NCBI RefSeq assembly: GCF_053078305.1
Contig: NZ_CP166879.1
Length of the DNA: 64,000 nt
Strand: one strand, 5' to 3'
In this document: one piece after another, positions 1,419-64,000 of the stretch
How the letters are laid out: the number at the start of each line of letters is the position of its first letter
Position numbering within the stretch: position 1 is the first letter of the stretch
Program-made: the position numbers and the translations under genes
Notes under the pieces: model-generated
Told to the model about the DNA's origin: nothing
Database searches by the model: none
Seen by the model: only the letters and a program-made list of their open reading frames with translations

Positions 1419-1446
1419 TAACCATTTGATAAATATTAAATTAATT

Positions 1447-2721
1447 TTACCCCGCCTTGTTATGGGGCATGGTTGGGGCAAACTCGCTTAGCTGTGTATT
1501 TAACAGCGTTACCTGTGCATTATTATTTTCTGACATCCATTTTCCGTACACCTGAAACACCATTTGCGCATCGGCATGCCCCATCTGGTTTGCTATGAAT
1601 GCAGGATTAGCACCAGCTGTTAGCGACCAGCAGGCATAAGTATGTCTCGACTGATATGATTTTCGGTGGCGGAGTCCTGCTCGTTTTATTGCTGCGTCCC
1701 ACATCTGTCTTATTGAGTCAACAGTAAAATGGTCACCATAATTTTTTACTCTCGCTGACACTTCAGGTTGAAAAACAAAGGTGCATTTTTGTTTTTCTGT
1801 TCTGCCATACTCTCTGAGGTGAACATCAATGATATGCTCTTTGCTCAGTCTCGTTAGTGTCATCTGATTCTGGAGGGCCTCGATTGCTGGCTTAATAAGG
1901 TGAATTACACGATTAGTCCCCGCCTGTGTTTTTGGTACCGTAAAATGGTCTTTTGCTAAATTTCTCCTGATCATCATTGTTCCATTTTTCAGATCTATGT
2001 CCTCCCATCCAAGTGCACACAACTCACCAGGGCGAACGCCAGTATAAACAGAAACACACCACAAATTTTTGGCTTGCTGATTTCTGCACGCATCTATAAG
2101 GCGGATAAATTCCTCCCGCGAAAGAGGATCTGGAATGGTTCTTGATTCCTTTAATGGCGATATCCCCTTAAACGGATTATCTGCCAGGTAGCTGTTATCA
2201 ACACCAAACTGGAACACGGCGTTAAGATTTGTCATGTAATTATTTACGGTAACAGCCGATCTCCCGGGTTGTGTAACAATATAGTTACTTTTGGGGATCT
2301 GGTATCCAGTCAGTAACTCTTTACGAACCTCCAGTAATTTTTCTTTATTAATCGATGAGGCAAGATTTTTTTCACCGATTATGCTCAGGATATTTTTGAT
2401 GACGGCACGGTATGTATTGAGTGAACTTCTGGCAACTTCGGCCTCTTTTAGTGCCAGAAATTTTTCGGCCAGTTCACCTATAGTCAAATTTTGTCTGGCT
2501 TCCCCAAATTTTTCCAGATTGTGGGAGTAGGGGAACTGTTTTGCGTAGTCAAAAATCCCCGTTTTTATTGCGTAACAAACAGAAGCGCGTAGTTCACCAG
2601 CGATGCGTCTGTTTTTTACTGTGTCAGGGACACCGAGGTTTTCCCTGACTCTTACGCCTTTATAAACAAACCAGATGCGTAATGTCCCCCCGTGTTTTTC
2701 TACGCCTGTCGGATATTTCAT
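1447..2721 (-). CDS. int: Tyrosine-type phage integrase
   Basis: 424 aa with C-terminal catalytic region (...HTYACWSL...); sits at prophage/host junction. Confidence 0.8.
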   Translation of the reverse strand: MKYPTGVEKHGGTLRIWFVYKGVRVRENLGVPDTVKNRRIAGELRASVCYAIKTGIFDYAKQFPYSHNLEKFGEARQNLTIGELAEKFLALKEAEVARSSLNTYRAVIKNILSIIGEKNLASSINKEKLLEVRKELLTGYQIPKSNYIVTQPGRSAVTVNNYMTNLNAVFQFGVDNSYLADNPFKGISPLKESRTIPDPLSREEFIRLIDACRNQQAKNLWCVSVYTGVRPGELCALGWEDIDLKNGTMMIRRNLAKDHFTVPKTQAGTNRVIHLIKPAIEALQNQMTLTRLSKEHIIDVHLREYGRTEKQKCTFVFQPEVSARVKNYGDHFTVDSIRQMWDAAIKRAGLRHRKSYQSRHTYACWSLTAGANPAFIANQMGHADAQMVFQVYGKWMSENNNAQVTLLNTQLSEFAPTMPHNKAG

Positions 2722-2755
2722 GCCAGCTTCTCTCGTTGATTAGTGTTGTTTTGGA

Positions 2756-3007
2756 TTAAGCAAGGTGACGTCTTGGCCTTGCCGATGCCTGACGCTCGAT
2801 CCAGCGATCAATTTCTTCCAGATTGTAAAAACATGGGCTGTTATCCCACGGCATGCCGTCATGAGCGACATGTTTATACTCTCTCCCTTCCATAAATGAT
2901 TTTTCCCTGGCTTTTTTCAGTGTTCCTTTTTTTATTCCTTTCAGCGCAATTAACTGCTCTTCAGATACCCATTTGCCGGGAGAGACAATCATGATTACTT
3001 CACTCAT
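2756..3007 (-). CDS. Putative excisionase / small DNA-binding protein
   Basis: 83 aa ORF immediately upstream of int on same strand; position-based call. Confidence 0.45.
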   Translation of the reverse strand: MSEVIMIVSPGKWVSEEQLIALKGIKKGTLKKAREKSFMEGREYKHVAHDGMPWDNSPCFYNLEEIDRWIERQASARPRRHLA

Positions 3008-3077
3008 CGCTTTTTATCTCTTACATCAGATGAGCGCCGGTTGCAGAATACCAGTCACAACCGGCGACGGTTGAACA

Positions 3078-61508: not shown

Positions 61509-61510
61509 CG

Positions 61511-62092
61511 ATGGACAAGCCGACGCGTGGTCGTGTACGCAAGGTGGATTTGCTCCCCGACAGCATCCGTAAGCCGCTGCTGGAAATGCTGCGTGAAAAA
61601 CGTCTGACGCAGGTCCAGATCCGCGAGGAAATCAACCGTCTGATCCGTGAGGCGGGCCTGCCGGAAGAGCAGCAGCTTTCACCGGCGGCCATCAGCCGGG
61701 AAGCCTCCCGTAATGAGCTGATTGCCCGTAACCTGCGTGATTTACGCGAGCAGACAAAAGCCATGATGGCCGAACTGGGGGACAAGCCAACCGGTGAAAC
61801 CACAGCGCTGATTCTGGAAATGTCCCGCGCCCTGATGTACCGCCGCCTGCGTGCCGCGACCGAATCTCTGAACAGCGACAGCGACGTGGATATGCGCCTC
61901 ATCAAAGACATCCTCCTGTCAGCACAGCGTGCGGAAAGTGCCGCCGAGCGCAGCATTAAGCGTGAAAAAGAAATCCGGGCCGCATTTGCTGAAGAGATGG
62001 CAAACGCGGTCACCGACGAGCTGCGCGGCGTGGATGGCATGAGCGAGCAGATAGAATTTCGTATCAGGCAGATGCTGCTGGGTAAAGCGTAG
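61511..62092 (+). CDS. Putative terminase small subunit (Mu gp27 position)
   Basis: 193 aa, directly upstream of large terminase; positional. Confidence 0.45.
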   Translation: MDKPTRGRVRKVDLLPDSIRKPLLEMLREKRLTQVQIREEINRLIREAGLPEEQQLSPAAISREASRNELIARNLRDLREQTKAMMAELGDKPTGETTALILEMSRALMYRRLRAATESLNSDSDVDMRLIKDILLSAQRAESAAERSIKREKEIRAAFAEEMANAVTDELRGVDGMSEQIEFRIRQMLLGKA

Positions 62093-62102
62093 GAGGTGAA
62101 TC

Positions 62103-62351
62103 ATGGCAACAGATAACCGCTCACTGATGATCTGTGCCCATCAGAAGGCATTCAGTCTTGCAACACAGTTACCTCCTGAAACCATAAAAGTGTGTCGTGA
62201 GTTGACTGAACTCTGCATTGCCGGGGAAATCTCCCTGAAACAACTGCATTCGCTGCTGGCAGAGGCTGTCACTGATGAATTGAGCAGCGTGGACGTGATG
62301 ACTGAAGAGCTTGAGTCCCGAATCAGGGGCATTCTGACAGGTAAAGCATGA
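62103..62351 (+). CDS. Hypothetical protein
   Basis: 82 aa; C-terminus repeats that of the previous protein. Confidence 0.35.
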   Translation: MATDNRSLMICAHQKAFSLATQLPPETIKVCRELTELCIAGEISLKQLHSLLAEAVTDELSSVDVMTEELESRIRGILTGKA

Positions 62352-64000
62352 TGAGCAAAGCCAAAGAAACGTCTCCTTCACTGATGCAAATGACGCCTCC
62401 CCGCAAAATTGATCTGGCCGGTGAAAAAGCCCTGCTGGGCGTGGATGTGCCGGACAGCCTTGATTTACCCGGTGATATGCCGGTGTTTCTGGATTATCAG
62501 GCCCGCTGGTTTGAGGATGAAAGTCAGGTCTGCATCGCGGAAAAATCCCGACGCACCGGGCTGACCTGGGCGGAAGCCGGGCGTAACGTCATTACCGCCG
62601 CAAAGCCTAAGCGTCGTGGTGGCCGTAATGTGTTTTATGTGGGGTCAAAGCAGGAGATGGCGCTGGAATATATTTCTGCCTGCGCCCTGTTCTCCCGTGC
62701 CTTTAACCAGCTGGCAGATGCTGATGTGTATGAGCAGACCTTCTGGGATCGGAATAAAAAAGAAGAAATTCTGACCTACATGATCCGCTTTCCGAACAGT
62801 GGATTCAAAATTCAGGCACTGTCTTCCCGTCCGTCAAACCTGCGCGGCCTTCAGGGGGATGTGGTGATTGATGAAGCCGCGTTCCACGAGTCACTGGATG
62901 AGCTTCTCAAGGCGGCAATGGCGCTCACCATGTGGGGCGCGCGCGTGCGTATTATCTCCACGCATAACGGCGTCGATAATCTGTTTAATCAGTACATTCA
63001 GGAAGCCCGCGAGGGGCGCAAGGATTACAGCGTCCACCGCATAACCCTGGATGATGCCATTGCGGACGGGCTGTACCGTCGTATCTGTTATGTCACCGGC
63101 CGCGAATGGTCACCGGAAAGCGAGCAGAAGTGGCGTGATGATCTCTACAAAAACGCCCCGACCCGTGAGGATGCCGACGAGGAATACGGCTGTATCCCGA
63201 AAAAATCCGGCGGTGCCTATATTCCTCACGCGCTTATTGAAATGGCGATGCTCCGCGACATCCCGATTCTGACGTTTGAAGCCCCGGACGACTTCATCAG
63301 CCGTGCCGCATGGCTGCGTGAATCGGAGGTTTTAACCTGGTGTGAAGAACATTTAAAACCGCTTTTAGAGGCGTTAAATCCCCGTTCCCGCTTCAGCTTC
63401 GGGGAAGACTTTGCCCGCACCGGTGACCTCTCCTGCTTTGTGCTGCTGGAAATCACTGAATCCCTGGCAAAACGCGAGGTGTTTCGCGTGGAGCTGCGCA
63501 ACCTGCCGTATGCCCAGCAGGAGCAGGTGATGATGTACATCCTGACCCGCGTTCCGGCGCTGGTCGGTGCGGCGTTCGACGCCACCGGTAACGGCGGCTA
63601 TCTGGCCGAAGCCGCGCTGCTGGCCTTTGGCCCGGACATCATCGACTGCGTGATGTTATCGCCGAAGTGGTACGGCGAGTGGATGCCAAAACTGAAGGCC
63701 GAGTTTGAGGATCAGAATATCCTCGTCGCCCGCCATCAGACCACGCTTGATGATTTGCGCCATGTGAAGGTGGTGAACGGTATCCCGCAAATCGACAAGG
63801 GGCGTACGAAGGACCAGAACGCAACGGCTGTGAACGCCCGCCGCCATGGCGATTTTGCCGTGGCGCTCTGTATGGCAAACCGGGCGTCGTACATGGAGGG
63901 CTTCATCCTGGATGAATCAGCCTGTCAGGCGCTGCCGGAGCGGTCGCGGGCCATGGAGGGCGGTTATCGTGATGACGATGAGGCATATCATGAATTTGAT
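62348..64000 (+). CDS. Mu-type terminase large subunit, N-terminal ~550 codons; 3' end outside window
   Basis: Open frame from ATG 62348 to window end (absent from ORF track because there is no stop); ...DVVIDEAAFH... Walker B-like. Confidence 0.75.
   Translation, partial: MMSKAKETSPSLMQMTPPRKIDLAGEKALLGVDVPDSLDLPGDMPVFLDYQARWFEDESQVCIAEKSRRTGLTWAEAGRNVITAAKPKRRGGRNVFYVGSKQEMALEYISACALFSRAFNQLADADVYEQTFWDRNKKEEILTYMIRFPNSGFKIQALSSRPSNLRGLQGDVVIDEAAFHESLDELLKAAMALTMWGARVRIISTHNGVDNLFNQYIQEAREGRKDYSVHRITLDDAIADGLYRRICYVTGREWSPESEQKWRDDLYKNAPTREDADEEYGCIPKKSGGAYIPHALIEMAMLRDIPILTFEAPDDFISRAAWLRESEVLTWCEEHLKPLLEALNPRSRFSFGEDFARTGDLSCFVLLEITESLAKREVFRVELRNLPYAQQEQVMMYILTRVPALVGAAFDATGNGGYLAEAALLAFGPDIIDCVMLSPKWYGEWMPKLKAEFEDQNILVARHQTTLDDLRHVKVVNGIPQIDKGRTKDQNATAVNARRHGDFAVALCMANRASYMEGFILDESACQALPERSRAMEGGYRDDDEAYHEFD

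Follow-up and report, generated by a model that had tools for sequence, protein, structure and literature searches.

We analysed a 64,000-nt stretch of NCBI RefSeq assembly GCF_053078305.1 (contig NZ_CP166879.1), referred to here as the window, whose coordinates are used throughout. It very probably contains a lambda-like prophage, integrated in ydfJ, that has been hit by two unrelated insertions: a satellite of the helper-embedded phage-inducible chromosomal island (HE-PICI) type in the portal gene B, and a Mu-like transposable phage related to Sp18 in the tail-completion gene Z. The late genes of the host prophage, hereafter the helper, follow the lambda order (cos, terS, terL, W, B, C, D, E, FI, FII, Z'), as expected of lambdoid morphogenesis, and its integrase lies at the ydfJ boundary beside rspB. 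An initial annotation had described a lambdoid prophage at the rspB junction, an integrase-bearing satellite in B and a Mu-like phage in Z, and all three elements were borne out. Its picture of three nested layers was not, in that the chromosome holds one prophage and the prophage holds two sister inserts at equal depth. Profile assignments were made with PHROG and Pfam, the satellite RNA genes were called with Rfam at scores over the gathering score, and genome counts refer to 5,426 complete E. coli genomes.

The portal gene is divided at a precise point. The match of its N-terminal fragment to uninterrupted portals stops at 32103, and the open frame of the fragment enters the satellite and meets a stop at 32150, 17 codons in. 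An identical 8-bp core, AAAGCCAT, is present at both satellite junctions (32091 and 43930). Deletion in silico of the 11,839 bp between the cores produced an in-frame portal of 530 aa, which spans positions 2-354 of 354 of Pfam Phage_portal_2 and is identical, without gaps, at 524 of 530 residues (99%) to the intact annotated portal of strain AREA_492. No further lesions were found in the two fragments. The predicted attB of the restored portal contains GCCATTGTTAAAGCCATGTATGCAGCG, and the predicted attP of the excised satellite contains TTCATAAAAGCCATTTATGTC, also written TTTTCATAAAAGCCATTTATGTCTATC. The identical cores and the restored portal argue, at the level of sequence, that the insertion in B is a clean, reversible and site-specific event. 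The same attL-type junction was detected in 63 of the 5,426 genomes with a 321-bp probe spanning attL, for which a match across the junction was required. EC28 and APEC O2-211 both carry the element in the portal gene of a lambda-like prophage that is otherwise complete.

These features match a described class. In HE-PICIs, the satellite integrase is directed to one of 14 sites in lambda-type late genes, and three of these sites lie in the portal (Tommasini, Mageeney and Williams 2023, NAR Genom Bioinform; PMC10111431). The site group B:Phage_portal_2:241 of that study uses the same portal codon region (the K-A-M codons) and the same core AAAGCCAT, or AAGGCGAT in other portal alleles. In its supplement, Eco14761.12.B_Phage_portal_2_241 is listed with the identity block 'aaagccat' and with attL and attR flanks that are almost base-for-base those of the window. 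The diagnostic doubled motif of the group, tgTGTATTGCantgTGTATTGCa, published as lying ~81 bp upstream and 132 bp downstream of the attP centre, occurs in the window satellite as two co-oriented copies. The upstream copy lies at about -100 to -78 from the core centre, and the downstream copy, with its 'tg' prefix, starts at +132 bp, the published distance. On the + strand, the 8-mer TGTATTGC of these motifs occurs nowhere else in the window.

The layout of the satellite likewise fits the portal group. All main satellite genes lie on the + strand, matching the late operon, and the element shares with the group this orientation, a size of ~12 kb and the order of zones, in which Int and AlpA are followed by Bro-N with C4 and isrK RNAs, then by replication genes and then by captured late genes. 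Its integrase is full length (413/413 aa) and 99% identical to its counterparts at this portal site in EC28 and APEC O2-211. This tyrosine integrase is terminal and is followed by AlpA; judged by identity to same-site integrases rather than by phylogeny, it may belong to the HE-PICI integrase clade. Integration of the satellite interrupts the target gene, which becomes intact on in-silico excision, and there is no replacement sequence, as is characteristic of HE-PICIs. As judged by these matches, the satellite is an HE-PICI of site group B:Phage_portal_2:241 that integrated on target. The initial annotation had missed both its class and the fact that the portal site is the dedicated attachment site of that class. 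Compared with the group, the window satellite carries a RepA-like helicase replication module, whereas the HE-PICIs of EC28 and APEC O2-211 have a primase, and its late zone also differs, with its own small terminase subunit (TerS) gene between two inverted cos sites. The helper is additionally broken by a Mu-like phage, a case that PMC10111431 does not mention.

Could a satellite of another kind, such as a capsid-forming PICI (cf-PICI), a P4-like satellite or an ordinary chromosomal PICI, have landed off target in the portal gene? The element does encode capsid, decoration, scaffold and TerS proteins together with a C4 RNA of the P4/P1 type, and its replication and late modules recur in a chromosomal PICI at roxA-phoQ. 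We nevertheless regard this explanation as extremely improbable, because the element has the integration module, core, flanks and doubled motif of the HE-PICI portal group, and 63 genomes carry an insertion at this site. A profile search of the satellite open reading frames (ORFs) found no portal, protease, large terminase subunit (TerL), connector or tail genes. With only E-like, D-like and Nu3-like proteins and TerS, the element could not build a capsid alone, and a cf-PICI was rejected on this ground. A P4-like satellite, suggested by the C4 RNA, was rejected as well, since no homologues of sid, psu or the alpha primase were present and the helper is lambdoid; the likeness to P4 is limited to a C4/CI-type RNA and a small activator-like protein.

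Among related systems, Gram-negative PICIs such as EcCICFT073 show the same int-alpA-replication-late layout, dependence on a lambdoid helper and cos packaging (Fillol-Salom et al. 2018, 2019; PMC6092414, PMC6739421). Classical PICIs occupy chromosomal sites and meet their helper only in trans, whereas the window satellite is embedded in its helper. In addition, EcCICFT073 uses Rpp and lacks terS, whereas the window satellite encodes a TerS homologue; a PDB sequence search with the small late-zone ORFs and TerS returned no significant match to an Rpp-like redirecting protein. The chromosomal PICI at roxA-phoQ in E. coli RM14516 (L008 3180-14216) has a different integrase and shares the RepA-helicase and capsid/terS modules at ~91% identity. 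This sharing shows that embedded and non-embedded PICIs exchange modules, in keeping with the modular exchange described in PMC10111431. In AREA_492, a related satellite (L002 8954-22768) lies in the large terminase subunit gene (A) of a helper whose intact portal is 99% identical to the restored portal of the window. Its late genes and dual cos sites are similar to those of the window satellite, and its integrase is only 24% identical. On this comparison, near-identical helpers receive similar cargo in different late genes through different integrases, which shows a wider tropism for late genes.

Some details of the satellite deserve separate mention. Both of its cosN copies, inverted on either side of terS, are flanked by ~80 bp of cosQ and proximal cosB-like sequence. 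This module of cos, terS and inverted cos was covered over at least 80% of its length in 485 of the 5,426 genomes and is also found in the terL-embedded satellite of AREA_492. EcCICFT073 has two cos sites as well, and why some PICIs carry two is an open question (PMC6739421). A 464-aa ORF at 34843-36237 (+) was discarded as a gene: its translation is of low complexity, and it overlaps the isrK and C4 RNAs and the minus-strand YlcI/YnfO-like gene. It is almost certainly spurious and could mislead automatic annotation. The helper has an isrK/C4 pair of its own (6689-6877, -), which is accompanied by a Rha-family regulator gene and is ~68% identical to the satellite pair (35806-35991, +) over 270 nt.

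The second insertion is in Z, which aligns to intact Z genes through ...GGCGGTGCC (48940), where TGTAACCAGG... / TGTAACCAGGTAAATCATTTGATACCG... begins; the fused Z' frame reads VTR* into the Mu-like phage. The left terminus, TGTAACC..., carries repeated TTTGATAC(C/T)G sites and is followed by the repressor, Ner, A and B genes; behind these lie gam, mor and lysis genes and then the first of the head genes, as in the annotation of a 98%-identical prophage (L005/L006). Nucleotide identity to Mu-like prophages at other sites is 96-98%, and the left terminus is identical in three genomes at three sites. It is found at an unrelated chromosomal site in STEC2018-553, where a 98%-identical Mu-like prophage adjoins cyuA, and it also starts a Mu-like phage annotated by the depositors inside a Stx2c phage. 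The Sp18-type Mu-like prophages of Shiga toxin-producing E. coli (STEC) (Sp18 of O157:H7 Sakai; LC727881, LC727895; PMC10132054) have the same termini, a short duplication, variable sites and the same gene order (c, ner, A, B, gam, mor, lysis, head). In three independent Sp18-like insertions, the right terminus ends ...GCGCTATA. Phage Mu itself makes a 5-bp target duplication and has a ...CA terminus. In contrast, the three Sp18-like insertions are flanked by 4-bp duplications, TGCC, ATAA and CATC, which have no common motif (window 48937-48940 / L010 2936-2939; L005 about 2997-3000 / L006 about 21681-21684; L007 2674-2677 / 42646-42649). A 5-bp reading needed a first-base mismatch in two of the three, so the 4-bp reading was adopted; the GenBank depositors of LC727881 likewise annotated a 4-bp duplication.

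The window ends inside the Mu-like phage, and its right end and the tail genes are known only from two IMG/VR contigs, L009 and L010 (IMG genome 2617271340). L009 spans the left junction between Z' and Mu, where about 970 bp agree with the window at 100% identity. A few small indels separate the two sequences elsewhere, which indicates that L009 and L010 are a separate assembly of what appears to be the same or a clonal strain. In L010, the right end of the phage reads ...CGCCGCGCTATA-TGCC-GCTGACCACAGC..., and this TGCC repeats the four bases that precede the left end. Z then resumes in frame with exactly the 35 missing codons, followed by U, V, G/T, H, M, L, K, I and part of J. The duplication, the in-frame remainder of Z and the tail genes indicate that the insertion is a simple one with target duplication, rather than a rearrangement or a misjoin, and make misassembly very unlikely. 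In L010, J (10025-13308) is missing ~280 profile positions at its start and is split over several frames. Further decay of the helper or indel errors of that assembly could be the cause, and we did not rely on it.

The initial annotation had named an assembly error as the outcome that would undo it, that is, lambdoid, satellite and Mu-like contigs joined at repeats into a nesting that is not real. Mu-like and lambdoid sequences are indeed multi-copy in many E. coli genomes, and the source genome is absent from the complete-genome and species-representative collections, so that the assembly itself was not inspectable. A scan of the species-representative collection for the predicted right junction and the exact left junction gave no match, nor did an exact-protein look-up of the chimeric Z' product. 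Nevertheless, an artefact of this kind is hard to credit: every junction lies at an exact element terminus and none inside a shared repeat, the 8-bp core stands on both sides of a perfectly restorable portal, and the portal-site junction recurs in 63 finished genomes. The left terminus of the Mu-like phage is base-exact, its right junction shows a 4-bp duplication with in-frame continuation of Z, and the second assembly has the same junctions. The comparison that the initial annotation had proposed, with genomes in which B and Z are uninterrupted, gave concordant results, namely the intact AREA_492 portal and intact Z genes that align up to the insertion point.

The co-occurrence of the two insertions is most likely incidental, combining one programmed integration with one quasi-random transposition that crippled the helper, and we see no evidence of ordered conflict. 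Transposition is taken to be quasi-random because the same phage occurs in ordinary chromosomal genes, its targets have no common motif and the insertion in Z is unshared. Another explanation is that the insertion in Z was targeted or selected, as inter-element warfare that disables a competitor. Sp18-like Mu phages are often found in mobile elements, including six of ten copies in STEC of CC119 (PMC10132054), two GenBank Stx phage records (LC727881, LC727895) and this window. We consider warfare distinctly unlikely, since the same phage lies in ordinary chromosomal genes, for example next to cyuA in STEC2018-553, and the duplicated targets share no motif. Moreover, survivorship bias by itself predicts enrichment in dispensable prophage DNA, and the Z insertion was shared by no other genome of the complete E. 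coli collection nor by any other record searched. Thus, where the initial annotation had read the locus as a record of successive conflict, the sequence supports the two insertions but does not demonstrate their order or a conflict, and insertion of the satellite is a programmed, site-specific lifestyle that recurs in 63 genomes, rather than an accident or a trace of conflict.

For the HE-PICI and its helper, a plausible sequence of events can be proposed. While the satellite is integrated, portal would not be made, as there is no replacement sequence. Upon induction, Int and AlpA would excise the satellite precisely and restore the portal, a form of 'regulated gene integrity'. In a sister HE-PICI, 11capE, induction led to excision of the composite, then to replication and then to excision of the satellite (PMC10111431); by analogy, the whole composite in the window would excise and replicate before the satellite leaves and restores the late gene. 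Its orientation, the same as that of the late operon, would let replication and late transcription of the helper act in cis on the satellite. The satellite presumably relies on TerS, cos sites and E-, D- and Nu3-like proteins of its own and, judging from gene content, would borrow portal, protease, TerL, head-completion proteins and tails from the helper. Comparable splitting of a gene with precise, stage-specific restoration is known as regulated gene integrity or active lysogeny in the Listeria comK phage and the B. subtilis sigK skin element. Unlike in those cases, the split gene here belongs to another mobile element, the helper phage, and the presumed beneficiary of the regulation in the HE-PICI case is the satellite rather than the cell (discussion of PMC10111431).

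Transposition of the Sp18-like phage generated the 4-bp duplication, cost Z its last 35 codons and separated the head genes from the tail genes U to J by about 39-40 kb (size taken from LC727881 and STEC2018-553). Lambda tails are biologically active only if Z is present, and lambda heads accept DNA of only about 78-105% of the genome length. With Z truncated and a genome of about 90 kb even without the satellite, the helper should, by analogy with lambda, be unable to make infectious tails or to fit its genome into a lambda head. The suggestion in the initial annotation that heads need excision of the satellite and that tails are compromised is reasonable. The HE-PICI would then be effectively orphaned unless another lambdoid phage provides tails, and the Mu-like phage is probably the only element still able to complete its cycle alone. 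Many HE-PICI helpers are truncated and their satellites 'potentially abandoned' (PMC10111431); the locus in the window would have reached the orphaned-satellite state by a different route.

Alternatively, the locus may be a fully decayed graveyard, in which the satellite is dead too and the split of the portal is permanent. The helper is crippled by the Mu-like phage, J looks frameshifted and lacks its N-terminal part in the related assembly, and the authors of PMC10111431, who describe many truncated helpers and 'abandoned' HE-PICIs, obtained no virions. We find complete decay unlikely, because all satellite ORFs with homologues are full length, the integrase among them, the two att cores do not differ, and neither the arm motifs nor the cos sites are damaged. 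Furthermore, the portal fragments bear no lesions and together nearly equal an intact copy, and the apparent frameshifts in J may be sequencing errors of an assembly that differs by indels. The portal lesion is probably reversible.

Several points weigh against the reading of an HE-PICI and a Mu-like phage that struck one helper independently. Excision, replication and packaging of all three elements are inferred from sequence for this strain. No virions were recovered from the model composite, so that helper function is putative even for the type case (PMC10111431). Loss of tail function through truncation of Z would follow from what is known of lambda Z. Finally, the right end of the Mu-like phage and the tail genes were seen only in L009 and L010, which belong to an indel-differing assembly, and no single sequence examined spans both Mu ends. 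A more speculative idea, which we would entertain only as an outside chance, is that the Mu insertion turned the helper and its HE-PICI into a locked composite, from which the satellite excises, rebuilds the portal, forms small E-like capsids with helper head proteins and takes tails from a different lambdoid phage, resident or superinfecting. If so, the locus would offer a natural example of a helper-embedded satellite with its dependence divided between two helpers. A related idea is that Sp18-like Mu phages prefer silent prophage DNA. Support for both ideas is circumstantial.

Under the reading of two independent insertions, the locus illustrates how other mobile elements insert into prophages in their turn, and the ~100-kb 'prophage' is really three elements. 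Its value lies chiefly in annotation, in that the split portal and the truncated Z should not be taken for simple pseudogenes. Both kinds of insertion have been published (HE-PICIs in 2023, Mu-like phages in STEC prophages in 2023), and the window is a tidy example and not a new phenomenon. It could serve as a natural test of HE-PICI survival after loss of the embedding helper.

Table 1. Features of the 64,000-nt window, with coordinates, strand and the basis of each assignment.
Feature	Coordinates	Strand	Basis or remark
rspB, chromosomal flank	210..1253	+	annotated in syntenic locus L001
Lambdoid prophage left boundary (attL)	1403..1446	.	inside ydfJ, Qin-type site
Lambdoid prophage integrase	1447..2721	-	ORFs and annotation of syntenic H1 locus
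Lambdoid prophage excisionase	2756..3007	-	ORFs and annotation of syntenic H1 locus
RecE-type exonuclease, lambdoid prophage	3078..5597	-	ORFs and annotation of syntenic H1 locus
Early/regulatory/lysis region, lambdoid prophage	5600..28400	.	
Three tRNAs, helper prophage	19758..20009		
Helper cosN (CGTTACGGGGCGGCGACCTCGCGG)	28480..28503	+	exact lambda-type cosN, upstream of terS
Helper terS	28682..29191	+	phrog_57/1790
Helper terL	about 29163..31091	+	phrog_15
Helper W-like head-tail adaptor	31075..31281	+	phrog_75
Portal gene B, N-terminal fragment, codons 1-274	31278..32098	+	phrog_21 positions 35-295
Satellite attL core AAAGCCAT	32091..32098	+	
HE-PICI satellite (probable), 11,839 bp	32099..43937	+	co-oriented with helper late operon
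Doubled TGTATTGC motif and third half-site, int-proximal attP arm	32229..32278	+	half-sites 32229, 32241, 32271
Satellite tyrosine integrase	32299..33540	+	phrog_1
Satellite AlpA-type excisionase/regulator	33542..33799	+	phrog_2790/66
Satellite Bro-N/anti-repressor	33854..34432	+	phrog_2593
YlcI/YnfO-like gene, satellite	35181..35501	-	phrog_6522
Satellite isrK-like RNA	35806..35882	+	Rfam RF01394, 66 bits
Satellite C4-type antisense RNA	35904..35991	+	Rfam RF01695, 77.6 bits
Satellite replication zone	36457..39768	+	small ORFs; phrog_285, phrog_2850/906, phrog_44, phrog_994
DUF4222-type gene, satellite	36919..37218	+	
RepA-like helicase, satellite	37215..38624	+	
Single-stranded DNA-binding protein (SSB), satellite	39075..39485	+	
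Small activator-like protein, satellite	39499..39768	+	
Satellite E-like major capsid gene	40214..41269	+	phrog_29; 47% identity to helper E
Satellite D-like decoration gene	41281..41616	+	phrog_49; 34% identity to helper D
Satellite Nu3-like scaffold gene	41629..42042	+	phrog_1999/53; 35% identity to C-terminal part of helper C
Satellite cos1	42097..42120	+	exact cosN match
Satellite terS	42237..42791	+	48% identical to helper TerS, C-terminal half only
Satellite cos2, inverted	42967..42990	-	exact cosN match
Doubled TGTATTGC motif, distal attP arm	43836..43855	+	half-sites 43836, 43848
Satellite attR core AAAGCCAT	43930..43937	+	
Portal gene B, C-terminal fragment	43938..44709	+	phrog_537; phrog_21 positions 289-526
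Helper C protease/scaffold	44699..46204	+	
Helper D	46241..46588	+	
Helper E	46646..47674	+	
Helper FI	47693..48109	+	
Helper FII	48102..48455	+	
Tail-completion gene Z, truncated after codon 157 of 192	48471..48940	+	phrog_27 positions 13-161 of 199
Left copy of 4-bp target duplication TGCC	48937..48940	+	
Sp18-like Mu-type transposable prophage, left 15 kb	48941..64000	+	extends beyond the window
Mu-like repressor	49246..49764	-	phrog_7148, phrog_310 and phrog_296 matched in the left-end module
Mu-like Ner	49982..50227		
Mu-like transposase A	50184..52292		
Mu-like B	52364..53296		

The chromosomal flank with rspB (window 1-1440) is 98.4% identical to E. coli, and the lambdoid prophage begins ~150 bp past rspB. 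In genomes with an empty site, where ydfJ is intact, the match to the window ends at ~1403-1406, within ydfJ, and 2,669 of the 5,426 genomes run on into a prophage integrase at this boundary. The homology stop inside ydfJ and the frequency of an integrase there identify the common Qin-type ydfJ site. The start at 1420 given in the initial annotation thus named the right element and was about 15 bp off. Assignment of the helper head genes C to FII (44699..48455, +) is based on phrog_53, phrog_92 and phrog_82 and on annotated homologues in three loci (L002, L003, L004).

The region from 5600 to 28400 encodes DicF, the isrK/C4 RNA pair with the Rha-family regulator gene, a repressor and cro. It also contains replication genes, hok/sok, RusA, a Q-like gene, a methylase and a NanS-p esterase gene, together with holin, lysozyme and Rz as lysis genes. 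A Stx-converting phage, suggested by the tRNA triplet, the NanS-p esterase gene and the Q-like region, was ruled out, as no stx ORFs were found in 20,010-21,646, the usual place of stx downstream of the triplet. DicF RNA (7125-7176, -), the hok/sok module (14216-14391, +), the small RNA STnc100 (20837-21049, +) and an IraM-like ORF (21073-21408, -) are usual cargo of Qin and lambdoid prophages.

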